A DNA stretch of 64,000 bases from a bacterium (GCA_030649055.1 JAUSGH010000001.1:10907-74906), one strand, 5' to 3'; shown: positions 5,449-64,000, numbered from the stretch's first letter. Notes: generated by a model from the letters alone, not told the origin. A program made the numbers and translations.

Positions 5449-5504
5449 ATGCGTTACAGTGTTTGACGGCAAACACTCGTACAATCCTTCGACAAGCTCA
5501 GGAT

Positions 5505-6015
5505 AAATAAAACAATAAAGCAATGAATCAAAAAAGCAACACAATGTTTACCGTCAAACAATGTTTACCGTCAAACATTGTTTCAGGCGAGGATGTTTGC
5601 CGGCAAACATTTGAAATGTATCAAAAGCCACTAAAAATACGGCAAGAGTACTGTTAATACGGCAAAACATGCTACTTTGCCGTATTTGTTTTATATTTTC
5701 GGTGAAATTGTTTCACGTCAAACACGCAGACAAGAAAACAATAAAGCAATAAATCAAAGAAGCGACAGATGTTTGCCGTCAAACAATTGTTTGACGGTAA
5801 ACAATTGTCTTGGGTGGAGGACATCGAAAAAACGTGATAAAGTGTTTGCCGTCAAACAATTGTTTTGGTAAAAATGACAAAAGTGTAGGTTTAATCAACC
5901 GATTGGATTATGGAGAAATTGCCTAGAAAGTAGGCTATAAAATGTTTAACAGATTGTTTAACGCCATGTAAATAAGTCAATCGGATAGGTTTAATCAACC
6001 GATTGGATTAAAAAA
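5505..6015. repeat. Cluster of iteron-like or operator-like direct and palindromic repeats in a 650-bp non-coding gap
   Basis: tgtttaccgtcaaaca is repeated in tandem three times at 5548-5598. Two roughly 70-bp imperfect direct repeats lie at 5507-5578 and 5737-5808. A perfect 22-bp palindrome ccgtcaaacaattgtttgacgg lies at 5777-5798. aggtttaatcaaccgattggatta occurs at both 5887 and 5988. Confidence 0.6.
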
Positions 6016-6112
6016 CACCCGTGAAACAAATTATACTGTAAAACAATATTGTGCGACAGATATGTAAAGTGTAACGGCCAGCTCGAGGTTGTCGGGCTGG
6101 CCGTCGTGTAGA

Positions 6113-13966: not shown

Positions 13967-14118
13967 GGTTTGAGCGCGTTGGCGTCTCACCGGATCTCGC
14001 AGGTCAAGAATCAAGAATAAAGAATCAATTCACAATCGATTACTTATTCCTGGCTCCGACCGTTGCTATCTCGGCAATTCCGCTCGCGCAGTTATTTTTT
14101 AATTTTTTAATGTATGAC

Positions 14119-14733: not shown

Positions 14734-14997
14734 TTATTTAAGCCCCAGCTTCTTTACTGTCGCAGTGTGCGCTTTGGCATCATTTTTTGCGAGATAGGCC
14801 AAAAGGCGGCGGCGCTTGCCGACCATCTGCAGGAGTCCGCGGCGGGAGGTGTTATCTTTCGGATTCTTTTTCAAGTGCGCCACGAGTTCGTCAATACGGC
14901 GGGAGAGAATGCCGATCTGCACGCCGGAAGAACCGGTATCAGTGTCGTGTATGGCATGCTCTTTTACGATGATTTTCTTTTTTCTTGGAGTTAACAT
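14734..14997 (-). CDS. rpsO: 30S ribosomal protein S15
   Basis: TGSSGVQIGILSRRIDELVAHLKKNPKDNTSRRGLLQMVGKRRRLLAYL. Confidence 0.93.
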   Translation of the reverse strand: MLTPRKKKIIVKEHAIHDTDTGSSGVQIGILSRRIDELVAHLKKNPKDNTSRRGLLQMVGKRRRLLAYLAKNDAKAHTATVKKLGLK

Positions 14998-15012
14998 ATG
15001 AGTTTTGGTAAT

Positions 15013-15064
15013 GGTTCGACTGTGCTCACCAAATAAATATTTCCTGAGCTTGTCGAAGGAATAC
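15013..15064 (+). repeat. Hairpin-plus-RBS intergenic repeat, copy A
   Basis: ttcgac-tgtgctca-ccaaataaatatttcc-tgagc-ttgtcgaa-ggaatac. Shares the core ataaatatttcctgag...tcgaaggaatac with copies at 16169-16220 (reverse) and 18833-18884. Confidence 0.6.
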
Positions 15065-15065
15065 T

Positions 15066-16160
15066 CTACTTTTTAAGTTTAAGAATAATGCGTTTCTCGG
15101 CGGGTTTCACTGTTGCAATATGGAACGTGTACGACTTGCCCAATTCAAGTTGCTTTTTCATTTCATCAACGCCTCCGAACTCCGACACGTGGATAAGGCC
15201 CTGGATATCCGCATCCAGCGCAACAAACGCGCCGAACGGATTGAACTTCGTGACGGTGCCTTGCACATCGGTGTCATCTTTGTATTTCTCCGGCACCTTG
15301 AGCCACGGGTCTTCCTGAAGGGCTTTGAGTGAAAGCGAAACGCGGCCGTCCTTGATTTCAAGGATTTTCGCTTTGATGGAATCATTCACTTTCACGATTT
15401 CTTTCGGGTTTTCAATGAGGCGATGGCTTAATTCCGAAATGTGGATAAGGCCTTCAATGTCCGGGTTGTCCGCGAAGCGTACAAACGCGCCGAAGTCCGC
15501 GACTCCCGAAACAATGCCTTCCACCATGTCGCCCACCTTATACTTCTCCAAAAGCTCCTTCACATTCGTGCTCATAGTCTCGCGCTCGGAGATGATGAGC
15601 TTGTTGGTGCGGGGATTGAGGTCAATGATTTTCACCTTCAATTCCTGACCGATGAATTTTTTGAGTTCCTCAAGAATCTTGCCTTTGTCGCCGTCCTCAA
15701 TGTGCGGATAGTGGTCCGGGGTCAATTGCGACACCGGCAAAAACGCTTTGACGTCGCCGATGGGGGCAATGAGTCCGCCGGAATTCGCCGCCGTAATTTT
15801 GACGGTAACAATTTCCCCGCGCTCCAACAGATTCTTGATGTCCTGCCACGCGCGTTGCTTGCCGGCTTCGGCGAGCGAGAGTTCGATATAGCCGTCGTCA
15901 TTTTCCGGATCAACGACCTTCGCGCTGACTTTATCGCCCGGCTTCAGTGCTTTCACGGCTTCCGCGGCGTTGGAATATTCGGCGCCGTACACAATGCCGG
16001 TGCCGAACCTGCCGAGATCAAAATAGGCGGACTTGGTTCCTTTGCTTAAAAATACTGCTTCAACGAGGTCGCCGTGCTTTAATGTAGCGAGCAGGCCAGA
16101 ATCGCCTTTCAAGAGCTGCGTAATGGGCGAATTCAACTTCTTCGGAATGGTAATGGGCAT
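15066..16160 (-). CDS. rpsA: 30S ribosomal protein S1 (four S1 domains)
   Basis: Repeated S1 motifs (GDMVEGIVSGVADFGAFVRF, GTVTKFNPFGAFVALD). 364 aa. Confidence 0.9.
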   Translation of the reverse strand: MPITIPKKLNSPITQLLKGDSGLLATLKHGDLVEAVFLSKGTKSAYFDLGRFGTGIVYGAEYSNAAEAVKALKPGDKVSAKVVDPENDDGYIELSLAEAGKQRAWQDIKNLLERGEIVTVKITAANSGGLIAPIGDVKAFLPVSQLTPDHYPHIEDGDKGKILEELKKFIGQELKVKIIDLNPRTNKLIISERETMSTNVKELLEKYKVGDMVEGIVSGVADFGAFVRFADNPDIEGLIHISELSHRLIENPKEIVKVNDSIKAKILEIKDGRVSLSLKALQEDPWLKVPEKYKDDTDVQGTVTKFNPFGAFVALDADIQGLIHVSEFGGVDEMKKQLELGKSYTFHIATVKPAEKRIILKLKK

Positions 16161-16168
16161 ATATATAT

Positions 16169-16220
16169 GTAGTCCTTCGACTTTGCTCAGGAACTATATA
16201 GTTGGTGAGCTTGTCGAACC
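16169..16220 (-). repeat. Hairpin-plus-RBS intergenic repeat, copy B (rpsA leader)
   Basis: The reverse complement reads ggttcgacaagctcaccaactatatagttcctgagcaaagtcgaaggactac and ends 9 nt before the rpsA ATG. The GAAGGA segment serves as the RBS. Confidence 0.6.
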
Positions 16221-16410
16221 ACTACAACCGTGAGGATGAAATTTACTTATAATGTCGCTTTTCGGCGCATCCCCGGCAGCCGATCCGCAATTACTCCAAA
16301 TGATAGCGGAGTCCGCTCAAAAATGCAAGCGCGTACTCTGTCATTGCGAAGGGCCGATAGCCATCGGCCCTGTGGCAATCTTACATTATAAAAACCCTAA
16401 AAATGGATTA

Positions 16411-16441
16411 GGGGCGGGTGAGCATTATACTCACCCGCCCC
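16411..16441. terminator. Strong GC hairpin terminator
   Basis: ggggcgggtgag-cattata-ctcacccgcccc, immediately downstream of the minus-strand gene 16452..17063. Confidence 0.65.
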
Positions 16442-16451
16442 CGTTGCTGTT

Positions 16452-17063
16452 CTACTGGCCGTTGTTGCCGGACTCACCGTTCCCGCCGCTCGTCGCCGCG
16501 GTCACGGGCTCGAGTGCCGGCTCGGTCGTCGCCAGAGCCGGTTCCGCCGCCGGCGTGGTCGTGGGCGGCTGCGTTGCCGCCGCGATCTGCGCCTGGAGCG
16601 CCTTGATGGTCTTCTGCGCGTTCGCCGCGCGTCCGTTCGCCTCGGCGAGCTTCCTGCGCGCCTCGCTGAGGTTGTTCTTCAAGTCGTCCTCCGCTCGCAA
16701 GTTCGTGTCCTTCAGCGCCTGAATCGTCTGCTGCGCTTTCAGCCGCTGGTCGTCCTTGCCGTGCTGGTAGGCCTCGTCCATGACGTCCCACAGGCTCTGC
16801 ATGGCCGGGACCTCTCCCGTGTTGGTGTTGATCGTCTGGCTCATGAGCCAGGAGAGGAGACCGTTGTAGTCGCCGACCTGGCGGATGACCTTCGCCTTCT
16901 TCCCGTCGAGCATCGTGATCTCGCTCCCCGGCACGTACTTGTGCGCGGGATTCTCGATGGTCATCGTGGGCACAAACTGCAGCAACCGGCCGCCCTCGTA
17001 CTGCTTGTGGGCCTCGCACCAGCCCGTCTCCACCACTAGGAACCGTCCAACCAAACTCTTCAT
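16452..17063 (-). CDS. Hypothetical coiled-coil protein with a Thr/Pro/Ala-rich C-terminal tail (GC-rich)
   Basis: AAGGAG RBS 9 nt before the ATG (MKSLVGRF). Central heptad-like region (LKAQQTIQALKDTNLRAEDDLKNNLSEARRKLAEANGRAANAQKTIKALQAQI). Confidence 0.5.
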   Translation of the reverse strand: MKSLVGRFLVVETGWCEAHKQYEGGRLLQFVPTMTIENPAHKYVPGSEITMLDGKKAKVIRQVGDYNGLLSWLMSQTINTNTGEVPAMQSLWDVMDEAYQHGKDDQRLKAQQTIQALKDTNLRAEDDLKNNLSEARRKLAEANGRAANAQKTIKALQAQIAAATQPPTTTPAAEPALATTEPALEPVTAATSGGNGESGNNGQ

Positions 17064-17309
17064 CACGACCCGCTCCTTTCCACCAAAATGGGTGAAACCA
17101 GATCTTTCGCGCAACCCGCCGAACGACGGATACTAACGCGAAATTAGATACAGTATACTCTTTCGCCGGAAAAAGTCAAGCCCCCATAGGCGTCGCGCTA
17201 ACGGCTCAACGGCGTATGCCCCGTTGAGCCGTTAAAAATTGAGGAACTAAGCGGCTTCTTAGTGTACCTTTTGCCCCACAAGCGGCAGGGTCGGCATCAG
17301 AAAGGAATC

Positions 17310-17353
17310 GTATATAAAAGGAAGCGGCCGCAGGTTTCAGGAACCTGCGGCCA
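17310..17353 (-). terminator. Intrinsic terminator for the Cys-rich gene
   Basis: gcggccgcaggtt-tcaggaa-cctgcggcc followed on the minus strand by a T-rich run. Confidence 0.55.
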
Positions 17354-17380
17354 CGGTGCTTGCGTCGTGCGCGTTGCGCA

Positions 17381-17992
17381 CTATGACTGCGCGTTGCCGA
17401 CGATCTTCTCGATCATCTGTGTGGTGATGATGCCCTTCGCTCCCTCGACGGCATCCAAGAGCTGATCGAGGCTACCCTTGTGCTGGTCGCAGCCGCCGAT
17501 CTTCGCTTGTATGCGGTCGGGTTCGTAACTGCGGTAGTCCAGCCGGGCACCGCTCTTGAACATCGCGACGACGCGTTCGCCCGCCGCCTTGCACTGGACG
17601 AACGCGGCGATGTTGTTGTAGAGGTTTTCCGGTCCGCCGCAGACGAAGCAACCCGGGGTCTGGTCGAGGCCGATGCCTCTCACCCAGAAGAACTCGCCTT
17701 CGCCATCCGGCCGCTTGTCCGGCTTGCCGTGGGAAGGGGTGCCGCGACGCGGATGCGGCTGGAGTTCGGGGTAGATTGTCTTTTCGGCGTCGTTGCCGAA
17801 TCCGATGGGCGACTTCGTGATGCCTTCCCCCAGAATGACACAACCCTTCTCGCACTCCCCGCAGTTCCACGTTGCCGCGCCACCGCCGGACGCCATGCTG
17901 TAGCCGGAACGGTAGCCGCAGTAGGGACAGCCGAACTCTTTCATCTCAGCGAAGCTGACTGCGATGATGTCAGCGGATTTGTTCTCACTCAT
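17381..17992 (-). CDS. Hypothetical Cys-rich (zinc-ribbon-like) protein, GC-rich
   Basis: GAGGAG RBS. CPYCGY...CGECEKGC and CFVCGG...C motifs. 203 aa. Confidence 0.5.
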   Translation of the reverse strand: MSENKSADIIAVSFAEMKEFGCPYCGYRSGYSMASGGGAATWNCGECEKGCVILGEGITKSPIGFGNDAEKTIYPELQPHPRRGTPSHGKPDKRPDGEGEFFWVRGIGLDQTPGCFVCGGPENLYNNIAAFVQCKAAGERVVAMFKSGARLDYRSYEPDRIQAKIGGCDQHKGSLDQLLDAVEGAKGIITTQMIEKIVGNAQS

Positions 17993-18192
17993 CGCCAGAT
18001 CTCCTCAAAAGAGGGTCTTCCCAAATGCGCCTCGTTAGAACATCTAACGATGCTGGCATAATAGCACGCAATATATTGATTTGTCAAGCGCCGTGAAATC
18101 TCGCATTGCGTGCGTTGCTTAATCGAAAAAATTTTGCTACTCTTCCATATATACTAGTGGCTAAACCCTAGTCGCTAGTGGCTTCTATATAT

Positions 18193-18786
18193 ATGGTCAT
18201 CAACTGGTACGGTGAAGGATGTTTCAAGGTTGCGAGCGGCCCGCTGACGCTGGTTTCCGATCCCTTTGAATCCGGTAACGGATTAACACCGCCGCGGTTT
18301 AAGACCGACTTGGTGTTGAAGACCGGCGGCTACGGCGCGTACGCGTCGGAAAAAGACGCGGAAGCACGGTTGGTTTCAGGCCCTGGCGAATACGAGGTGA
18401 AGGGGATTGAGGTTTCCGGCTACCCATCAGGGGTGGGCGCAGTATATATGGTACGCATGGAAGAAATGCGCCTTGTGTTTCTTGGTGGACTGTCAGCCGA
18501 ACTTACCGCCGACGTCCAGGAGCAGCTCATCGGCGCGCATATACTATTTGTTCCCGCGGGAGGTTCTCCGCAGCTGGAAGCGAAGGATGTCGCGACGCTC
18601 ATCAAAAAACTTGAGCCGAAAATCGTCATCGCGTCATTTTTCAGGATTCCGGAGTTAAAGCGCAAGGCCGAAGATTTGAAAGAGCTTGAAAAATCGATGG
18701 GGCAAAAATTTGAAATTGTTGATAAGCTGACCATCAAAGCGAAAGAAATCGGCGAGGGGTTGCGGCTCATTGCTATGAAGCTATAG
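18193..18786 (+). CDS. MBL-fold metal-dependent hydrolase (UPF0173-like)
   Basis: MVINWYGEGCFKV N-terminus and HILFVPAGG motif are typical of the small beta-lactamase-fold hydrolase family. ATG at 18193 preferred over the GTG at 18178. Confidence 0.6.
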   Translation: MVINWYGEGCFKVASGPLTLVSDPFESGNGLTPPRFKTDLVLKTGGYGAYASEKDAEARLVSGPGEYEVKGIEVSGYPSGVGAVYMVRMEEMRLVFLGGLSAELTADVQEQLIGAHILFVPAGGSPQLEAKDVATLIKKLEPKIVIASFFRIPELKRKAEDLKELEKSMGQKFEIVDKLTIKAKEIGEGLRLIAMKL

Positions 18787-18832
18787 CAATGAAATGTCTA
18801 ATTCCTAATAACTAATTTCTAATTACGGTAGC

Positions 18833-18884
18833 GCTTCGACGGGCTCAGCACATAAATATTTCCTGAGTGGAATCGAAGGAATAC
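18833..18884 (+). repeat. Hairpin-plus-RBS intergenic repeat, copy C
   Basis: cttcgacgggctcagcacataaatatttcctgagtggaatcgaaggaatac. Its AAGGA lies 10 nt before the ATG at 18891. Confidence 0.6.
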
Positions 18885-18890
18885 AATAAC

Positions 18891-19289
18891 ATGAGGCGTT
18901 GGATAGAAGACATAAGAAATTCCGATGAGGCGACAAAGCAGCGCTGGGTTATTGGGTTTACGGTTGCGACATCAAGCATCGTTGTGGCATTGTGGATGGG
19001 ATACGTTGCCTTGCAAGTTCCGGACATCACGCAACCGAAAGCGAGATTACTTGCGAACGCGGGAATAGCGGCGCGGACAATAACCGCCCCGCCTAAAACA
19101 GCGGGCGTCACGGAAACATTTACGGCGGGAGCGGGTGCCATCGCGGACGGCATCGGTTTGCGGTTGAGTCGCGGCATCGCGATGGTGAAAGGGATTCTTG
19201 GTCCCTCAAACACCATCGAGGTGCGCGGAGTAAAACAAGATTTTATACTGAAAGGCGTGGAAGCTGTGCCGGAGACGGAGTTTCCGTAA
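18891..19289 (+). CDS. Small membrane protein (hypothetical)
   Basis: MRRWIEDIRNS... followed by a TM helix (WVIGFTVATSSIVVALWMGYVAL). RBS provided by repeat copy C. Confidence 0.5.
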   Translation: MRRWIEDIRNSDEATKQRWVIGFTVATSSIVVALWMGYVALQVPDITQPKARLLANAGIAARTITAPPKTAGVTETFTAGAGAIADGIGLRLSRGIAMVKGILGPSNTIEVRGVKQDFILKGVEAVPETEFP

Positions 19290-23117: not shown

Positions 23118-23195
23118 TCCCCTTGTCATTCTGAAGCCGATAGCCATCGGCTGAAGAATCTCAGAGATCCTTCGCTCCGCTCAGGATGACACAGC

Positions 23196-23738
23196 ATGCG
23201 TATATTTATGAAAAAATTTTTTATCACATCAAGCATCGCCTTTCTCGCAAACACGTCAATCGTGTCCGCTGCCGGAATCGTTCCGCAGTGCGAAGGCGTC
23301 ACCTGCTCCATCTGCGATCTCATTAAGCTCGCGCATAACGTGATTCAGTATGCTATTCAACTTTCGTTCGCGCTCGCCGTGGGAATGGTGGTGCTTGGTG
23401 GCTATTATCTGATTACCGCCGGCGGTTCGGAAGAAAAAGTGACGCAAGGGAGAAAAATTGTATGGTACGCGGTAGTGGGACTGGGCATCGTGCTCTCGGG
23501 TTGGGTGCTTATCAATACCATGTTTCAGATTCTCATTAAGTCGCCGTCACCGCGGCCATGGAATGATATTCCCGATGATTGCGGATTGCCCGGAGTAGTG
23601 AATACGATGTCGGCGCCGCCGGTGGTTGGGGCGTCCGGCGCGTTGGAGCCTCAGGGTCCATCGAGCGATCTCATGACTAACCCGAACGACGAAATCAATC
23701 AGCGTTTTCGCGCGCCCGGGGGCGGCGGGAGTTTGTAA
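23196..23738 (+). CDS. Pilin-like small membrane protein, paralog 1 (TrbC/VirB2-like architecture)
   Basis: Signal peptide, CxxC, then two TM helices bracketing a LITAGGSEEKV...GRKIVWYAVVGLGIV motif, and a Gly/Pro-rich tail. The start could be the ATG at 23208. Confidence 0.5.
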   Translation: MRIFMKKFFITSSIAFLANTSIVSAAGIVPQCEGVTCSICDLIKLAHNVIQYAIQLSFALAVGMVVLGGYYLITAGGSEEKVTQGRKIVWYAVVGLGIVLSGWVLINTMFQILIKSPSPRPWNDIPDDCGLPGVVNTMSAPPVVGASGALEPQGPSSDLMTNPNDEINQRFRAPGGGGSL

Positions 23739-29635: not shown

Positions 29636-29722
29636 TGTCATTCCGGACCTGATCCGGAATCCAGCTCGCTAGGCTCTGGATTCCCGCTGGAGTTTATCCG
29701 CCTTTGGCGGGCGGGAATGACA
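29636..29722. mobile_element. MITE-like palindromic intergenic repeat, copy 1 (TGTCATTCC...GGAATGACA)
   Basis: 87 bp. Its reverse complement is about 90% identical to the copy at 37481-37566. Compound palindrome with internal hairpins. Lies directly after the ftsH stop. Confidence 0.6.
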
Positions 29723-29810
29723 CATAATCGATGGCTCGCTTGTTTTCCGCAACGCATTGCGTTACTTTTGATATGGTTCTTCTCGGGTGGTTTTTGTACG
29801 GAGGTAACCC

Positions 29811-30551: not shown

Positions 30552-30629
30552 TGGACCCGGTTTGCTTAGGCATCCGGGTCCGCTCTATTTGAAAATATGT
30601 CGGCGAAGCAGTATGATATGAATGCAAAT

Positions 30630-30771
30630 GCGCCCGTAGCTCAATGGTTAGAGCACCGAGCTTCCAATCGGCAGCGAGGATGGAGTAAAGTTGTGGCAAT
30701 GCGCCTGTAGCTCAATGGTTAGAGCACCGAGCTTCCAATCGGCAGCGAGGATGGAGTAAAGTTGTGGCGTT
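30630..30771 (+). pseudogene. Two tandem 71-bp units, each a tRNA 5' half plus a 37-nt spacer
   Basis: Unit 1 at 30630-30700 has acceptor gcgcccg, and unit 2 at 30701-30771 has acceptor gcgcctg. Both read ..gtagctcaatggttagagcaccgagctt + ccaatcggcagcgaggatggagtaaagttgtggc and lack an anticodon loop 3' side, T-arm and 3' acceptor. Confidence 0.7.
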
Positions 30772-30844
30772 GGGCGTGTAGCTCAATGGTTAGAGCACCG
30801 AGCTTATACCTCGGTGGTTCCTGGTTCGAGTCCAGGCACGCCCA
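30772..30844 (+). tRNA. tRNA-Ile (anticodon TAT)
   Basis: Acceptor gggcgtg/cacgccc, D-arm gctc-aatggtta-gagc, anticodon stem ccgag/ctcgg with loop cttatac, T-arm cctgg-ttcgagt-ccagg. No CCA encoded. Confidence 0.7.
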
Positions 30845-30890
30845 CAAATTTATTACATCCGAGCGAACCGATTGCATGCTAAAGGCATGG

Positions 30891-30927
30891 ACCTCGGTGG
30901 TTCCTGGTTCGAGTCCAGGCAGGCGCA
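30891..30927 (+). pseudogene. Orphan tRNA 3' half (anticodon-stem 3' strand, T-arm, acceptor caggcgc)
   Basis: acctcggtggttcctggttcgagtccaggcaggcgca. Its acceptor strand is complementary to the gcgcctg of 5'-half unit 2, implying a tRNA split by about 150 bp that contains the intact tRNA-Ile. A third 3'-end copy (tccaggcacgcccacaaatttta) lies at 31361-31385. Confidence 0.65.
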
Positions 30928-31639
30928 CAAATTTTATAATCAGCTTAATTGTTGATTATAAAATTTTGCGCCCGGACTCGAATGGGAAAGGGGTCGGGAA
31001 AACGGGAGTTTTCCCGTGGAGGAAGTGGACCCTATCGCAATTCTTGCTCTCGGCGCGTTGCGCTCCGCGCGCGTGAGCACAAGAAGCGACGACGAGGTTG
31101 TATGCTCTTGCATACGCCGAGGAGGAGCGACGCCGTGATTCGCGCGCGTGGTGCGCAACCCTTCGGGAAGCCGCATCTTGCCGCACATCGCAACGTTGCT
31201 CGTCGATTCATGTATCCCAGGGGATACACTTCACTCCTCGCGCCTTGCGCTGCGCCTAGCAATCTGCGGCTTCGCGCCAGAGATAAGAATTGCGATAGGG
31301 TCCGAACCGCTGGGTTTCAAAGCGCAAGCCCCGCAATGCGGGGCTGAGCAGTGAGATGTCCAGGCACGCCCACAAATTTTAAAACCAGAAGGAGGCGCGC
31401 TGTGGAAAACCCTCTTGCGCCTATGTGTCGCGATTTGTTATATATAAATGGTATGAAAAATGGTCGGCAACAGTTTACGTATGTCATGATTACGACGTCG
31501 CTTACGCGGAGGTCGCTTTCTCTTCATTCGTAACGCAGCCGATTCATACGAACGAAACAAGAAAGAGGCCTTCGCGAAACCGGAGGCCTTTTTCGTTTCG
31601 GGGCAGATTTTGTGGTTCTTTGACAATTCGGAGGTCGTC

Positions 31640-32123: not shown

Positions 32124-32207
32124 AGAAAAATGTTACGCTATGCAGTTGGCATGAGCTGTATGCGCGGTATAATTAGATATTAGACATTAGGAATTAGGAA
32201 TTGAACC

Positions 32208-33359
32208 ATGTCCCTCATTGAACAAAAAGATACGTTCGGTCCCGAGTTGGTGCTCCGTGTATATGATGCCGCAATCGGCATGGAAGGATTTTTAGTAATT
32301 GATAACACTGCTATCGGTCCCGGAAAGGGAGGCATCCGAATGACGCCGGATGTAACAGTAGAAGAAGTGTTTCGTCTTGCGCGGACAATGACGTGGAAAA
32401 ACGCGCTTGCTGACATTCCGTTCGGCGGCGCGAAGGGCGGGATTGTTTGGCCGGGTGGTTCCGACGAACTCAAAAAACAATTCATTCAAAGTTTTGCGCG
32501 CGCATTAAAGCCCTTTATGCCGAAGCGGTACATTGCGGGGCCGGACGTGAACACCGGCGAGCGCGAAATGCAGTGGTTTGTGGAGGCAACCGGCAACTGG
32601 CGCACGGCAACGGGGAAGCCGGCAAATTATTGTATGACGGTCTTCGGGAAGAAAGGAGAAAAGTGCGGCATTCCGCACGAGTTCGGCAGTACCGGATTCG
32701 GTGTGGTGCACGCGACGCGCGTGGCGGCGGATCTCGCGGGCTTGGATATCAAAAAAGCGAGCGTTGCGATTGAAGGATTCGGCAACGTGGGGAGTTTTGC
32801 GTTTCAGTACTTGAAAGAACTCGGCGCGAACGTGGTCGCGGTTTCCGATAAGGACGGCGCAATCTATAACCCAAAGGGCTTGGACGGCGCGAAACTCATG
32901 GCGCTCAAAAACGCGGGGAAGTCCGTCGCCGCCTACGGCAACGGCGAAAAAATTTCGCATGACGAAATCTTCGGATTGCCGGTGGATATTTTGATTCCCG
33001 CGGCGGTAACCGATGTCATCAACGACAAAAATAAAAACTCCGTCAAAGCGAAAATCATCGTGGAAGGCGCGAATATTCCAATGCAGGAACGCATTGAAGA
33101 AGAATTATTTAACAAAGGCGTCATGATTGTTCCGGATTTTGTGGCAAATGCGGGCGGGGTTATTTCTTCATACGCCGAGTACCGCGGCTATAACCCGAAG
33201 CGTATGTTTGAGTTGGTGGAACGAAAAATTGTGAAGTCCGCAAAAGTAGTACTTGGCAAGAGCTTGAAAGAGCACCGTCCGGCGCGTGCCATCGGCGTGG
33301 AGCTCGCAATGGCGAAAGTGGAGGCGGCGGGAAAGAAACGTAAAATGACGTTCCGGTAA
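32208..33359 (+). CDS. Glu/Leu/Phe/Val dehydrogenase family protein (glutamate dehydrogenase-like)
   Basis: GPGKGGIRM...IPFGGAKGG substrate-domain motifs and a GFGNVG Rossmann motif. Confidence 0.8.
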   Translation: MSLIEQKDTFGPELVLRVYDAAIGMEGFLVIDNTAIGPGKGGIRMTPDVTVEEVFRLARTMTWKNALADIPFGGAKGGIVWPGGSDELKKQFIQSFARALKPFMPKRYIAGPDVNTGEREMQWFVEATGNWRTATGKPANYCMTVFGKKGEKCGIPHEFGSTGFGVVHATRVAADLAGLDIKKASVAIEGFGNVGSFAFQYLKELGANVVAVSDKDGAIYNPKGLDGAKLMALKNAGKSVAAYGNGEKISHDEIFGLPVDILIPAAVTDVINDKNKNSVKAKIIVEGANIPMQERIEEELFNKGVMIVPDFVANAGGVISSYAEYRGYNPKRMFELVERKIVKSAKVVLGKSLKEHRPARAIGVELAMAKVEAAGKKRKMTFR

Positions 33360-33370
33360 TATTGGTCATC

Positions 33371-33437
33371 TGTCATTCCCGCGGAAGCGGGAATCTAGAA
33401 TTTGTGGACTAGATTCCGGATCGAGTCCGGAATGACA
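33371..33437. mobile_element. MITE-like palindromic intergenic repeat, copy 2 (short variant)
   Basis: tgtcattcccgcggaagcgggaatctagaatttgtggactagattccggatcgagtccggaatgaca. Same termini as the other copies. A related mini-palindrome gtcatccgaggatgac follows. Confidence 0.6.
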
Positions 33438-33485
33438 AGTCATCCGAGGATGACAAGCAGGGAGTGGTGCTATAATGAAAATACA

Positions 33486-37471: not shown

Positions 37472-37480
37472 AACGTTAAG

Positions 37481-37566
37481 TGTCATTCCCGCCCGCCGAA
37501 GGCGGATAAACTCCAGCGGGAATCCAGAGTTGGCGTGCTGGATTCCGGATCAAGTCCGGAATGACA
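37481..37566. mobile_element. MITE-like palindromic intergenic repeat, copy 3
   Basis: tgtcattcccgcccgccgaaggcggataaactccagcgggaatccagagttggcgtgctggattccggatcaagtccggaatgaca. Lies directly after the rsmE stop. Confidence 0.6.
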
Positions 37567-46657: not shown

Positions 46658-47552
46658 AATGATTACACTGAAATGTTGACCTTAAAGCATAACCCCTGCG
46701 GCTCCTAGTCCTCCATAAAGAGGACAATTTCCAGAGCCGCGCACAGCGGCTTTTGTCGTTGTAAGGGGACCGGTGCTGACTGAAACGAACGGACATTGAT
46801 AAACAGGATCTGACAGAAAATTCTTTTTTGTCGGGTGCTCATAAGTAAATCAATGCAAATGAAAACGCAATTTCAAGAGTATTATCGAAAGCATTCAATG
46901 CTTCGATGATCGGTTTTACTGCTCAATATCTGCATGATGGCGGAGTATTGAGTACGCCTCGTTAAGTCGCCTCAGGCGACCGCGAGGTTGCACGCGTTGA
47001 ATTCAGAGCGTGTATAAGGGCGTATGGTGGATGCCTAGACACAAAATGGCGATGAAGGACGCAGCATAACTGCGATAAGCTTCGGGGAGGTGTGTAGCAA
47101 CCTTTGATCCGGAGATTTCCGAATGGGGAAACCCTGCGCGGTAAACCCGCGTAACGCATGCGATTAAACGCGCATGTGAGCAGACCCGCTGAAGTGAAAC
47201 ATCTCAGTAAGCGGAGGAATAAAAATAGATTAGATTCCCCAAGTAGCGGCGAGCGAAAAGGGAACAGCCTAAACTTTAGTGTGTGCAGCAATGTATACGC
47301 TGGAGGGTTGCAAGGGTAAGACATTTTTGCGTATCGCAAAGCTCTCGTTAAACAGGGCTGTGCGATTCGCGGAAGATTGGTTACAAATTGCTTCGTTAGC
47401 TGAAGCTTCTGGAAAGAAGCGCCAAAGTGAGTGATAGCCTCGTAAGCGAAAACAAAGCAACCAATTCGTTTTATTTCTTAAGTACCTCGAGACCACAACA
47501 TCTCGAGGGAATCCGCCAGTACTATCTGGTAAGGCTAAATACATTTTGTGAT

Positions 47553-47589
<37 letters not shown>

Positions 47590-49458
47590 CAGCCCGGCGA
47601 GGGCGCTGAAATAGTACCTGAAACCATATGTCTACAAGGACTAGAAGTCCAACCACTGAGCAATCAGTGGCGGACAACTAGGTGCCTATTGAAGAATGAG
47701 CCAACGACTTTACGTTTACTGCTTGTCTAAGTCGCTTCATGCGACGGAGGCATAGGGAAACCGAGTGTTAATAGCGCGTTCTCTTATTTATGACCGAGTA
47801 GCTGGTATGCTTCCAGCGTTCGGTCATAGATGAGAAGGCAGTAAGTGTAAGACCCGAAGCCAAGGCGAGCTTGCCCTGACCAGGATGAACCCGAGCGAAA
47901 GCGAGGGGGAGGTCCGAACCAGTTGATTGTGCAAAATCTTTGGATGAGTTGGGGTAAGAAGTGAAAAGCTAATCGAGCTTGGTAATAGCTGGTTCTCTCC
48001 GAAATAGTTTTAGGACTAGCGTTCCGCAAAAACCGTATGGGGGTAGAGCACTGGTTGATTCGTATTGGGGGAAACCTCGGCGCATCAGTCAAACTCCGAA
48101 TACCATACGGGACGCGGGATAGTCAGACTGTGGGGGCAAAGCTCCATGGTCGCGAGGGGAATAGCCCAGACCGTCGTCTAAGGTCCCTAAATTCTTGCTA
48201 AGTGTAAAAGGTAGTCATGCCCCAGAGACAGATAGGAGGTTGGCTTAGAGGTAGCCATCCTTTAAAGAGTGTGTAACAACTCACTATTCGATGGGTCGTG
48301 GCGCCAAAAATGTACCGGGGCTAAGCAAGATACCGACGACACGGGTGTCCATGACTTCGGTCGTGGACGCGGTAGGAGAGCATTCTGATTGCTGTGAAGG
48401 TTCATCCGTGAGGAGGACTGGAGCGTTCAGGAGTGAGAATGTTGGCATGAGTAACCATCAAATCCGATGAGAAATCGGATCCCCGAAAATCCAAGGTTTC
48501 CGTGGCAATGGCAATCAACCACGGGTTAGGCGATCCTAAGGCAATGGCGAAAACCGTAGCCGATGGGTAGCCGGTTAATATTCCGGCCCGCGCTTATTTG
48601 TGCGATGGGGTGACGGAGGAAAAAAGGTTGAGCGTCTCAATGGTTTGACGTCGCTGATGATAAGGAATGTGTTCTTGGCAAATCCGGAGCACTGTGTTTA
48701 ATCGCGAATTCCGCGCGTCGGCGTAAGGCCAAGTTTTACTTGGCTAATTCAACTGAAGAGCCTTCCAAGAAAAACCTCTAAGTTTAGGATAAGCGCATCG
48801 TACCGTAAACCGACACAGGTGGGTGAGGCGAGACGCCTCAGGGGAACGAGTGAGTCTTGGTCAAGGAACTAGGCAAAAAAGCGGCCGTACCTTCGGTATA
48901 AGGCCTGCCCGTCACGCCGCAAGGTGTGCATGGGCTGCAACAAAAGTACATTTGGCGACTGTTTATCAAAAACACAGCTTCCTGCTAACTCGTAAGAGGA
49001 TGTATAGGAGGTGACACTTGACCGATGCGAGAAGGTTAACGGTGGGTGTGTATTCGAAAGCAATTTTGGATATGCTCACTGCCCGAAGCCCTCGTCAATG
49101 TCAGCGGTAACTATAACCGTTCTAAGGTAGCGCAATTCCTTTCCGGGTAAGTTCCGGAGCGCATGAATAGTGTAACGATCGAATGACTGTCTCGACCAAG
49201 AGCTCGGTGAAATTGCGATTCCCGTGAAGACGCGGGATACCTGTAACGGGACGAAAAGACCCCGGGAGCTTTACTGTAGTTTGATATTGGCTTTAACGTT
49301 TTTCTGCGTAGCGTAGTGGCGAGGGTATGAAACCTGGTTTTCGGATCAGGTGGACCCGACAATGAAACAGCCATCTGGAAAATGTTAAAATCTAACCTTT
49401 ACGGCAAAAACGTATTGGGACAGTGTCTGATGGGCAGTTTTAATGGGGCGTTATCCTC

Positions 49459-49793
49459 AACAAAACGATTGACATCCGTTCAATCGAGGGGGTTAACGTA
49501 ATAAAAAATTCAGCTATATGCTGGGACATCCGTGCATCTTCAAGTACTCGGGCGCTTCGCGCTCAGTGAAAATCTTGAAGTGGCATCCGCCAGGTGGCGG
49601 ATCGACGGACAATCAGCAGGCAACCTCCGACGGACATCGGAGAGAGTCCTCAACGACTATACGCTGAACATCGTGATGTCACTCGCGATGAAGATATAGT
49701 CTGACCTCTGTGGCGACACAGAGAGTTGTGGTAGAAATGCCGCGCCGATCACCGGCAACTAAATTTTAGAGTTGCTGGCGATGTGTAACAAAT
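49459..49793 (+). other. ORF-less insertion of about 335 nt in 23S next to the P-loop region (candidate group I intron)
   Basis: Flanking sequence reads ...ggcgttatcctc | insertion | ctaaaaagtaacggaggag. The flanks together restore the conserved GGTCTCCTCCTAAAGAGTAACGGAGGAG. Boundaries +/- 2 nt. Confidence 0.55.
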
Positions 49794-50127
49794 GCCTAAA
49801 AAGTAACGGAGGAGTTTATTAAGGTTGGCTTAGCGCGAATGGAAACCGCGCTGGACGTGTAAACGCAAAAGCCAGCTTGACGGCAAGACCTACAAGTCGC
49901 GCCGGTGCGAAAGCAGAAGTTAGTGACCCGATGATCCGTCATAGAATGGTCAGAGACATCGGCTAAAAGTTACCCCGGGGATAACAGGCTAGTCTGGTCC
50001 GAGAGTTCCTATCGACGACCAGGCTCGGCACCTCGATGTCGGCTCGCCCTAGCGCGGAGGTGGAGAAGCTTCCAAGCGTATGGCTGTTCGCCATTTAAAA
50101 GGGCACGTGAGCTGGGTTCAAACCGTC

Positions 50128-50401
50128 AACGAAAAAGAACCTAGAGAAGACATCAACAAACGGCGGCGCTTTGCCGTAAGGCAAAGCTGAGAAGTTGACT
50201 CATATCGGTGAAGTCCTACAAAATCTTTAACCTGGGTTTTGAGGATAACCCCGAGGGAAGGTCCGATGAACGTCGGACCCCCGTAGAGACTTGATCGTAA
50301 GGGATCGGAATCCGGTTTTATAATCGGGTTAATACGTCAACCCTCCGATGAATATCGGAGTGATGGTATAGTCCAAACAATTAGTAATAATTGAGTATTG
50401 C
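50128..50401 (+). other. ORF-less insertion of about 274 nt in 23S at the I-CreI-type homing site (candidate group I intron)
   Basis: Flanks aaccgtc | insertion | gtgagacaggttagtc restore the conserved AACGTCGTGAGACAGTTCGG. Boundaries +/- 2 nt. Confidence 0.55.
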
Positions 50402-50826
50402 GTGAGACAGGTTAGTCTCTACCTGTTACAGGCGTGTGATGCTTGAGGGCAGTCGACCCTAGTACGAGAGGACCGGGTTGAACGAACCTCTGGTCTACCA
50501 GCTTTAGTACCAACTGAATCGCTGGGTAGCTAAGTTCGGAAGGGATAAGCGCTGAAAGCATATAAGCGCGAAGCCTAGCCCAAGATAAGGCATCTTTCCG
50601 CAAGGAAGCAGTCCGTAGAAGATTACTACGTTGATAGGTCGCAGGTGTAAGATCAGTAATGATTTCAGCCGAGCGATACTAATAGACTGTCACACGCTCT
50701 GAATTGAGCGCATGAAAGTAGCGTTCTCTGTAGAAATATAGAGGGCGCCAGTAAAACCGATCATCAAAGCATTGAACCCCCGCCTTTCGGCGGGGGGAAA
50801 GGGTTAGAAAAAACAACCTTTTTGTT

Positions 50827-63300: not shown

Positions 63301-63331
63301 GGGATAGAGCATGGGAAGCAATGAAACAAAA

Positions 63332-63366
63332 AAGCATGGAAGCATATGGCGCCATGCTTTTTTGTT
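63332..63366 (+). terminator. Intrinsic terminator after rpoC
   Basis: aagcatgg-loop-ccatgctt followed by ttttgtttg. Confidence 0.6.
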
Positions 63367-64000
63367 TGCTATGTTTTGTTATACTTAAAGTAATATGCAA
63401 TTCCAGAATCAAAGAAGCAACCACCTTCCCAATTTATTGCTTTATTGCTTTATTGCTTTATTTCCCTGCCGCCGCTCATGCCTTCAACGGTCCGCCGCCG
63501 GGAAATCCGCCAACCGGTAACGGCTCCATTGTTACGGATGCCTCAAACCGCGTTGGGATTGGAACAGCATCACCCGACCAACTACTCACCGTTAAAAACG
63601 GAATGGTGCATGTCGCGAACGGCGCGACGCTTACGACAACTCCGGGAAGCACCGCTGGATATGGTCTTTTTATCGGCACCGATAACGCAACGGGCGAGTC
63701 GCGCATTCAAACCTATTGGAATACAGGCACGTCATTTTTGACTTTTCATACAAATACCGGCGGACTTGCAAGCGTGGAACGTGCGCGTATTGACGCAAAT
63801 GGCTTGACGACCACCGGCTTCAAACTTACCACCGGACCGGCAATCGGCTACGTTTTGACAAGCGACGCGACAGGTGTTGGCACATGGCAAGCAACGGCGG
63901 GTGATATCACCGGAGTTACGGCCGGAACGGGACTCACAGGAGGAGGAGTTTCAGGCACGGTTACGTTAAATCTTTCTACCCCCGTGACAGTCGCGAATGG
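63354..64000 (+). CDS. Secreted Gly/Thr-rich repeat protein, 5' partial (runs off the window); start uncertain
   Basis: This frame encodes a signal peptide ending AAAHA followed by NGPPPGNPPTGNGSIVTDASNRVGIGTASPDQLLTVKNG..., a fibre or adhesin-like low-complexity protein. The only in-frame ATG upstream of the signal peptide is at 63354, inside the rpoC terminator. Confidence 0.45.
   Translation, partial: MLFCLLCFVILKVICNSRIKEATTFPIYCFIALLLYFPAAAHAFNGPPPGNPPTGNGSIVTDASNRVGIGTASPDQLLTVKNGMVHVANGATLTTTPGSTAGYGLFIGTDNATGESRIQTYWNTGTSFLTFHTNTGGLASVERARIDANGLTTTGFKLTTGPAIGYVLTSDATGVGTWQATAGDITGVTAGTGLTGGGVSGTVTLNLSTPVTVAN

Follow-up and report, generated by a model that had tools for sequence, protein, structure and literature searches.

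A hairpin repeat, probably REP/BIME-like, at the rpsA locus of a Patescibacteria genome

A 64,000-nucleotide (nt) stretch of a Patescibacteria (candidate phyla radiation, CPR) genome (GCA_030649055.1, JAUSGH010000001.1:10907-74906; hereafter the window), whose S1 protein has its best named homologs among Candidatus Harrisonbacteria, carries three near-palindromic elements of approximately 52-58 nt, here termed copies A, B and C. Two of these flank rpsA, the gene for ribosomal protein S1, while the third precedes a gene for a small membrane protein. It is likely that the three elements are copies of a dispersed, non-coding hairpin repeat resembling the REP (repetitive extragenic palindrome) and BIME (bacterial interspersed mosaic element) sequences. 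They are not an S1-specific control element, since copies adjoin unrelated genes and come and go between relatives. Members of the family were found in numerous bacterial phyla, next to unrelated genes and in either orientation, and even close relatives with the same gene order differ in which copies they carry.

On the minus strand of the locus the gene order is rpsA-rpsO-NYN-pnp, while the plus strand, diverging from the rpsA side, carries a gene with a metallo-beta-lactamase (MBL) fold, an open reading frame (ORF) for a membrane protein of 132 amino acids (aa), and gyrA (Table 1). Copy A begins 1 nt past the rpsA stop codon and lies 10 nt ahead of the rpsO ATG, in reversed orientation relative to both genes; copy B ends 8 nt ahead of the rpsA ATG (16160), and copy C ends 6 nt ahead of the ATG at 18891. 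Read on the plus strand for A and C and on the minus strand for B, the three align over approximately 52 nt and share the form GG/GC-TTCGAC-N2-3-GCTCA-CC/GC-(12 nt AT-rich)-CC-TGAG-N4-5-TCGAA-GG-A(A/C)TAC. Copies A and B are near-perfect palindromes broken by GG/GG and CC/CC mismatches, owing to which the palindrome has a definable orientation.

An earlier sequence-only reading of this DNA had reported three copies of a roughly 52-nt hairpin element at 15013-15064, 16169-16220 and 18833-18884. All three were found to lie there and to fit the consensus it gave, although the palindrome runs a few bases further in each case (A from 15008, B to 16225, C from ~18827). Motif counts exceed those of shuffled sequence: CCTGAG-N4-18-TCGAAGG occurs four times in the window versus 0.06 in shuffles, and TGAG-N4-5-TCGAA seven times versus 1.18. 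The 12-mer TCGAAGGAATAC alone, with two mismatches allowed, showed no significant enrichment in the window.

Two further loci were assigned to the family. One is copy D, a lone unit found 31 nt before the ATG (5448) of a UPF0102/YraN-like gene, where it adjoins a TGTTTGACGGCAAACA palindrome. Copy E, a degenerate single unit whose end on the plus strand falls 8 nt ahead of the ATG at 23196, did not match covariance model R1 and is the weakest assignment of the five. Model R1 was built solely from metagenome units; its scan of the 64 kb detected A2, C2, B2, D and three partner halves of A-C, along with one further weak, non-significant match (14017-14049, 10.6 bits, E 4.6) in the NYN-pnp spacer. 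As R1 finds little else across the 64 kb, the three doublets represent a local cluster.

Table 1. Repeat copies, their component units and the adjoining genes in the window; bit scores refer to covariance model R1
Feature	Coordinates	Strand	Description
Copy A, inverted doublet	15008..15064	+	Between rpsA and rpsO; 50.9 bits (A2), 14.3 bits (A1)
Unit A1	15015-15028		Part of copy A; core TTCGACTGTGCTCA
Unit A2	15038-15063		Part of copy A; TAT-t-TCC TGAGCTTGTCGAA GGAATA
Copy B, inverted doublet	16169..16225	-	rpsA 5' leader; 38.6 and 21.7 bits
Unit B2	16170-16196		Part of copy B; TAG-t-TCC TGAGCAAAGTCGAA GGACTA
Unit B1	16199-24		Part of copy B
Copy C, inverted doublet	18827..18884	+	Between MBL-fold gene and 132-aa membrane ORF; 39.5 and 19.3 bits
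Unit C2	18857-18883		Part of copy C; TAT-t-TCC TGAGTGGAATCGAA GGAATA
Copy D, single unit	5480..5506	-	TTATCC TGAGCTTGTCGAA GGATTGTA; 26.7 bits, E 5.5e-05
Copy E, degenerate single unit	23166..23188	-	ATCC TGAGCGGAGCGAA GGAT, without bulged T; assigned by eye
rpsA (S1, 364 aa)	15066..16160	-	PF00575 S1; copies A and B on either flank
rpsO (S15, 87 aa)	14734..14997	-	Copy A adjoins on upstream side; PF00312 found on orthologs
132-aa membrane ORF	18891..19289	+	One hydrophobic segment; copy C adjoins upstream; element-free ortholog in relatives L002 and L195

Unit structure and the wider family

The basic unit of the family is an imperfect hairpin of 27-30 nt, such that the element of roughly 52 nt corresponds to two units and copies A, B and C are inverted doublets. 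Read 5' to 3', the unit consists of TA[N], a bulged T, YCC, T, a tandem G.A/A.G, G, Y, a loop of 2-3 nt, R, (T), C, GA, A and GGR-[N']TA, its Patescibacteria-type form being TA[N]-t-TCC-TGAG-Y-(N2-3)-R-(t)CGAA-GGA-[N']TA. The core, TGAG-Y-(2-3 nt)-R-(T)CGAA, is closed by YCC/GGR, and its invariant form is TGAGYNNRTCGAA.

Structural covariation, which the sequence-only reading had proposed to look for in homologous leaders, was observed among the repeat units. In an alignment (A4) of 92 distinct units from metagenomes, in which the search pattern left only two pairs free, the outer pair N/N' was GC in 45 units, UA in 12, GU in seven and AU in four, while the inner, tip-closing pair was CG in 57, UA in 20, UG in six and GC in one. 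Both pairs covary, with none of 500 shuffles reaching the observed values and with slid-partner controls collapsing. Accordingly, what was called a 13-nt loop makes more sense as an extension of the stem, i.e., T-A, the tandem G.A/A.G, G-C, a bulged T and Y-R, followed by a loop of 2-3 nt. Furthermore, units A2 and B2 are exactly one compensatory change apart (TAT...ATA versus TAG...CTA).

Since the two cores of a doublet are complementary, it can also fold as one long hairpin, and the predicted RNA folds of the elements range from -14.6 to -23.7 kcal/mol with z-scores of -1.6 to -4.3 (copy B, -23.1 kcal/mol, z -3.4). Among GC-rich doublets the flanks pair with the apical halves at levels well above flank-shuffled controls (of 8 possible pairs, 5.66 against 4.14 and 5.76 against 4.86), so that each half may fold alone or the cores may pair into the long hairpin. 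The tip-closing pair is nearly always 5'-pyrimidine...purine-3' around a 2-nt loop, and in the 3'-TCGAAGG orientation G.T-compatible stems exceed A.C-compatible ones (37 versus 11), the excess being equal in sense and antisense copies. Together with the tip sequences described next, these features hint that the folded single DNA strand may matter; the energy model misses such motifs. The tip recalls the mini-hairpin DNA motif GCGNAGC / GCGNNAGC (PMC13037366): several units have a tip of the form G-C-G-N-A-G-(t)-C, such as GCGGAGC (copy E) and GCGAAGtC (numerous metagenome copies). In contrast, the tips of A and D read C-TT-G and that of C reads T-GGA-A, and any stability of the mini-hairpin kind is not captured by the energy model.

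A search for the consensus across genomes revealed a large family. The doublet pattern TTCGA-N3-4-CTCA-N16-TGAG-N4-5-TCGAAGG (20 specified bases), scanned against one genome per species, returned at least 120 genome loci, compared with a calculated random expectation of ~4 (596 Gb x 2 strands x 4 gap combinations / 4^20). These loci derive from more than ten phyla, including Nitrospinota, Nitrospirota, Acidobacteriota, Actinomycetota (with cultured Microbacteriaceae), Bacteroidota, Alphaproteobacteria, Desulfobacterota, Chloroflexota, Planctomycetota, Omnitrophota, Cyanobacteria (one cyanobacterium) and Patescibacteria, and several genomes carry multiple loci, e.g., five in one Nitrospinota metagenome-assembled genome. 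Complete genomes carrying the family include CP113000.1, OZ245798.1 and OZ244795.1. Approximately two thirds of the matches listed fall outside long ORFs. The doublet consensus reads (CAT)GG-TTCGACAGGCTCA-CC-ATGACCGGTCAC-CC-TGAGCTTGTCGAA-GG(GTG), and the matches share with the window copies several features that the pattern did not specify, i.e., the 5' GG, the inner CC/CC, the C after TTCGA and the G before CTCA. The AT-rich, Patescibacteria-type unit pattern TTCCTGAG-N4-5-TCGAAGGANTAC, scanned against metagenome contigs, likewise returned at least 120 loci, of which approximately three quarters are single units and one quarter inverted doublets like A-C, with some tandem or alternating arrays.

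The repeat, found across more than ten phyla, is absent from Rfam, E. coli and phage collections. No Rfam family matched the elements at the gathering score, nor at E up to 10 over 14900-19000, and none matched family members at eight other loci at E up to 1. The GC-rich consensus had no match in E. coli genomes or phage collections and only short partial matches in six plasmids; the doublet pattern had none in 2.9 million viral contigs. A literature search by peptide strings, 13-mer DNA strings and concept terms returned no paper describing the repeat by sequence.

The arrays vary in form. At L236 (5420-5950) five units stand head to tail at a 35-nt period, and arrays are also present on metagenome contigs L126, L180 and L227, that of L227 being tandem. 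Alternating arrays also occur, their units linked through a conserved CATGTCGGA...GGTA[G/A]CCC spacer, and a GC-rich insertion of 12-15 nt (TTCGAC-TGCGCTGCTGCTTCG-CTCA) interrupts some of the L-type cores.

This variety bears on whether the complementary 13-nt cores could be operator half-sites for a dimeric regulator or a nucleoid protein. An inverted repeat of a conserved 13-mer would suit such a role, and orientation independence fits a DNA site. However, the single units that make up most of the Patescibacteria-type copies have no partner half, tandem arrays exist (L236, L227), the flanking stem covaries although a duplex binding site does not need it, and no regulator gene is linked. A protein-binding site is thus considered highly improbable.

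The neighbours of the copies are diverse. ORF clustering around doublet copies showed only housekeeping families to recur (thiolases, response regulators, ABC ATPases), while around unit copies no neighbour family occurred at more than two loci among the matches listed, and more than 100 different genes adjoin. Relative to flanking genes, doublets were found in sense orientation in 20 cases and antisense in 18, and single units in 16 and 13, respectively. Divergent spacers are depleted versus convergent ones (6 versus 14 for doublets, 6 versus 10 for single units).

These data can be set against the proposal that the hairpin is selected as RNA, i.e., kept, like REP or Correia sequences, because it stabilises or processes mRNA as a 3' protective structure, a 5' stabiliser or an RNase III site. 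The stability of the long-hairpin folds, the start of copy A directly after the rpsA stop codon, the depletion in divergent (promoter) spacers and the excess of G.T-compatible stems are all in line with such a role. Yet orientation is unbiased with respect to transcription, the G.T excess does not differ between sense and antisense copies, no copy is followed by a U-tract, and the sites are empty in close relatives (see below), which leaves selection as an RNA hairpin unlikely. Given the unbiased orientation, the lack of a partner gene and the lack of an Rfam match, a strand-specific RNA role is unlikely to be the family's reason to exist, and a REP-like repeat acting at the level of DNA is the better fit.

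Close relatives, rpsA control and translation starts

Comparison with relatives bears on the link to rpsA. L002 and L003 (S1 95% identical at the aa level) share the gene order and have no element at any of the three sites (before rpsA, in the rpsA-rpsO spacer and before the small ORF); in the L002 alignment the coding ends align, while the spacers are unrelated sequence. In L195, which is syntenic at ~90% nt identity, copy A is kept with one substitution, B and C are absent, and an extra unit is present in the NYN-pnp spacer, where the window has only the weak match mentioned above and no unit. The R1 scan found no copy in L246-L248 (S1 92% aa), L004/L005, L249/L250 or L251/L252; the S1 identities of the element-free syntenic relatives are 95%, 92%, 75%, 73% and 68% aa. 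By R1 scan and direct reading of the sequences, none of L002-L005, L195 and L246-L252 has the element upstream of rpsA.

A motif, ACATTATAAGTAA, located ~70 nt before the rpsA ATG, is common to the window and L002, with a near-identical variant ~40 nt before the ATG in L195. Its conservation suggests a putative rpsA promoter, on which basis copy B would be transcribed within the rpsA leader. S1 and S15 are known autoregulators in E. coli, and the sequence-only reading, citing S1 autoregulation, had suggested a translational operator. S1 and/or S15 would then bind the hairpin in the rpsA and rpsO leaders, which the positions of B, 8 nt before the rpsA ATG, and of A, 10 nt before that of rpsO, would allow. 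That reading had itself tied the operator to the occurrence of the motif upstream of rpsA in related genomes, and it is there that the element is absent, in every relative examined (S1 68-95% aa identical, one at ~90% nt). In addition, A and B point in opposite directions on the mRNA, the element also precedes the membrane ORF and the YraN-like gene in the window and flanks more than 100 unrelated genes elsewhere, with no enrichment at rpsA, and no Rfam leader matched even at E up to 10. As in the E. coli rpsA and S15/rpsO leaders, a hairpin stands directly upstream of both start codons; unlike those leaders, it is not kept in orthologous leaders. An S1 or S15 operator is barely credible on these grounds, and a tempting wrong annotation is removed, there being no conserved S1 or S15 leader regulator at this locus.

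The trailing GAAGGA, previously taken as the Shine-Dalgarno (SD) sequence of the downstream gene, is present in the copies; its proposed role is weakly supported at best. The AGGA lies 12 nt (B) and 10 nt (C) from the start codon, the spacers from ...TAC to ATG being 8 and 6 nt; GAAGG is paired in every predicted fold; SD-like motifs are found before 8 of 51 long ORFs in the window, no more than the background of 17%; and the orthologs in relatives lack an SD at their starts. On the plus strand, to which copy A belongs, no gene follows it, as it sits between the rpsA stop and the rpsO start on the minus strand, so that for this copy the claim fails outright. Being part of the invariant core across all these phyla, GAAGG did not evolve here as a ribosome-binding site (RBS). 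The apparent SD would thus be an accident of the conserved core, a by-product of the repeat in a genome without sign of SD reliance, and occasional co-option as an RBS, although conceivable, would not explain the element.

Similar considerations apply to a mobile RBS or promoter cassette, also proposed earlier, which would spread because its GAAGGA tail or AT-rich centre serves the gene before which it lands. A start codon follows each of copies B, C, D and E, at 6-8 nt in the case of B and C, and 20 of 182 metagenome units (~11%) have a long-ORF start 5-15 nt after the GGA. However, gene starts are nearly as frequent on the opposite side of the unit (40 versus 28), the orientation of single units is unbiased, the GAAGG is paired and its AGGA 10-12 nt from the ATG in B and C, SD-like motifs do not exceed background, copy A faces antisense of rpsA, and a sigma-70 scan found no promoter in any copy. 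The cassette is accordingly weakly supported at best and appears very unlikely.

Several known signals were also considered and rejected. A sigma-70 promoter within the palindrome, with TTCGAC as -35 and the AT-rich centre as -10, would have too short a spacing (11-13 nt), in agreement with the negative scan. An intrinsic terminator does not fit, as no T-tract follows any copy. The consensus sequences of attC, dif, parS and CIRCE-type palindromes do not match, and the multi-copy distribution does not suit them.

Relation to known repeats and probable origin

Of the identities proposed in the sequence-only reading, that of a REP-like repeat agrees best with the data, the copies being dispersed, mostly intergenic imperfect palindromes that occur as singles, doublets and arrays, vary between strains and are depleted in divergent spacers. 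REP, BIME and REPIN sequences of Enterobacteria and Pseudomonas are likewise short imperfect palindromes with a conserved bulge or mismatch, found outside genes as singles, inverted doublets (REPIN-like) and mosaic clusters, co-transcribed with neighbours, strain-variable and avoiding divergent promoter spacers, and the 27-30 nt unit fits the 20-40 nt criterion for their stem-loop palindromes. REPs have many dispersed copies per genome; for the present family, the window has five loci and several other genomes have more than one. The core is absent from the consensus sequences of a REP catalogue comprising GTAG- and CGTC-tagged superfamilies (PMC3733652). In contrast to REPs, the window family has no general unpaired GTAG or CGTC tag. 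GC-rich members have flanks such as CATGG...GGGTG, without a tag, whereas Patescibacteria-type units start with GTA[G/T/A] on the reverse strand, where the variable base is paired and covarying and hence no unpaired tag; as the search pattern itself specified the TAC, no independent evidence comes from the conservation of this triplet. Further differences are the tandem G.A motif with its 2-3 nt loop, the lack of a RAYT among the neighbour genes clustered, and the sharing of one 13-nt core across more than ten phyla, REPs being usually lineage-specific.

Comparable in behaviour are Correia/NEMIS, RUP, BOX, ERIC and other MITE-like repeats of bacteria, which are also small and non-autonomous, settle beside genes and become part of transcribed untranslated regions. 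Correia/NEMIS, RUP, BOX and ERIC can alter expression or processing; they measure 100-150 bp, have terminal inverted repeats and target-site duplications, and are each confined to a single genus. The present unit is shorter than 30 nt, and no duplication is visible at the compared sites; neighbour-gene clustering, the only search made for one, yielded no insertion sequence with matching ends. Finally, IS200/IS605-type elements and their palindrome-associated derivatives have subterminal hairpins that are small and imperfect with an extrahelical T, and their HUH/Y1 transposases act on single-stranded DNA. The unit resembles these in its small imperfect hairpin and extrahelical T, and plausibly in single-stranded DNA recognition, a likeness that serves as a lead only; it differs in that neighbour clustering revealed no transposase gene nearby and that no left-end/right-end organisation or cleavage motif is definable.

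The repeat would multiply as DNA. The most plausible route is a single-stranded hairpin on which an enzyme of the host or of a mobile element would act in trans, in the way that RAYT-type HUH transposases handle REPs. A copy landing in a transcribed spacer would be carried into the mRNA as a stable hairpin, as may be the case for B in the rpsA leader, A in the rpsA-rpsO transcript and C ahead of the small ORF. As a side effect, such a hairpin could change mRNA stability, decay or the initiation of translation, in the manner of REPs and Correia elements in other bacteria, yet these copies are dispensable to the close relatives that lack them. The best reading is that any effects on rpsA, rpsO and the small ORF are incidental.

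Several observations weigh against interpretation as a REP/BIME-like repeat. The copies are unevenly spread, with three doublets inside 3.9 kb, and each of the five loci adjoins the start or stop of a gene; for the source organism, the copy number rests on these 64 kb and five loci. Relatives' spacers hold unrelated sequence, which is not a precise loss of the element, and comparison with L002 and L195 gave no target-site duplication or clean pair of empty and filled sites, the spacers being too diverged. The covariation counts come from repeat copies sharing ancestry and are not independent events, while isolated AT-rich units, folded as DNA under nearest-neighbour models, reach only -1 to -3 kcal/mol, so that the unit hairpin rests on covariation and not on energetics. 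Furthermore, no mobilising enzyme was found among the neighbour genes clustered. Lastly, conservation of the 13-nt core across phyla, unusual for normally lineage-specific REP-type repeats, could signal a conserved cellular function.

It is possible, if rather doubtful, that the elements are part of a larger, so far undescribed superfamily of very small hairpin repeats whose 13-nt core (TGAG-Y-loop-R-TCGAA, with tandem G.A and mini-loop) has been kept from Patescibacteria to Actinomycetota, Nitrospirota and Bacteroidota, which would imply a widespread enzyme or host factor recognising the folded single strand. If so, that factor either mobilises or uses the folded strand. Sibling hairpin families in the window, such as GTCATTCTGA...GAAGAATC and GTCATTCCSG...GGAATGAC, may belong with it. 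The unit model would provide a handle for finding the recogniser of so widely conserved a hairpin. Translations of the repeat (MVRQAHH..., ...PELVEG, ...LSLSKG) are a common source of spurious small ORFs in metagenome annotations, and a documented unit model would help to mask these and to flag strain-level insertion polymorphisms in uncultivated bacteria.

Further repeats and features of the window

Additional repeats were noted in the window. Around copy D, positions 5450-6060 (and also 63316-63463) hold dense 16-nt palindromes, TGTTTGCCGTCAAACA / TGTTTACCGTCAAACA / TGTTTCACGTCAAACA. Scattered among them at 5450-6060, in a non-coding stretch of ~650 nt, are AAGCAATAAA repeats and a duplicated GGTTTAATCAACCGATTGGATTA motif. 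The palindrome TGTTTCACGTCAAACA is one mismatch from the parS consensus, and the cluster may be centromere-like or lie close to an origin. A repeat of the AT-rich CTAAT type, AATGTCTAATTCCTAATAACTAATTTCTAATTA, is present at 18793-18825, just upstream of copy C, and in inverted form at 32170-32202, just before an ATG at 32208; the motif also precedes units in 6 of 124 metagenome copies, e.g., L168, L203, L238 and L241. A third type of hairpin repeat, with the central palindrome GCCGATAGCCATCGGC, is represented by GTCATTGCGAAGGGCCGATAGCCATCGGCCC...GGCAATC (16336-16385) and by GTCATTCTGAAGCCGATAGCCATCGGCTGAAGAATC (23126-23162), the latter directly beside the degenerate unit E; its outer arms resemble the TGAG...CGAA core family. 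Another hairpin family (GTCATTCCGGA...TCCGGAATGACA and GGGAATCC...GTCATTCCCGCC...) occurs at 29636-29727, 33386-33438 and 37476-37566 as direct and inverted copies of 85-96% identity, and similar sequence is present in the flanks of metagenome loci L163 and L192.

The region between rpsA and the MBL-fold gene is variable. In the window, 16230-18170 is GC-rich (60-68% versus ~50% in the flanks) and holds two minus-strand ORFs (220 and 203 aa) without Pfam match, each followed by a strong terminator. The same spacer contains a 71-aa ORF in L002 and a Fic-domain gene in L246, and measures only 142 nt in L251; as its content differs among relatives, it has the appearance of a hot spot for insertions. 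Cumulative GC skew is lowest at ~18000-18200, which coincides with the minus-to-plus switch of gene strand and adjoins gyrA; this could mark a replication origin or merely reflect gene strand.

Elsewhere in the window, the 23S rRNA gene (47004-50703) spans 3.7 kb, contains a group I intron at 49461-49723 and is flanked by inverted repeats of 26-28 nt at 46894-47013 and 50692-50776. Two tandem 71-nt copies (99% identical) that start like the 5' half of a tRNA directly precede tRNA-Ile(TAT) at 30772-30845 (region 30627-30934), and extra copies of the 3' part of this tRNA are found at 30891-30934 and 31336-31379; these may be tRNA-fragment duplications or integration scars.

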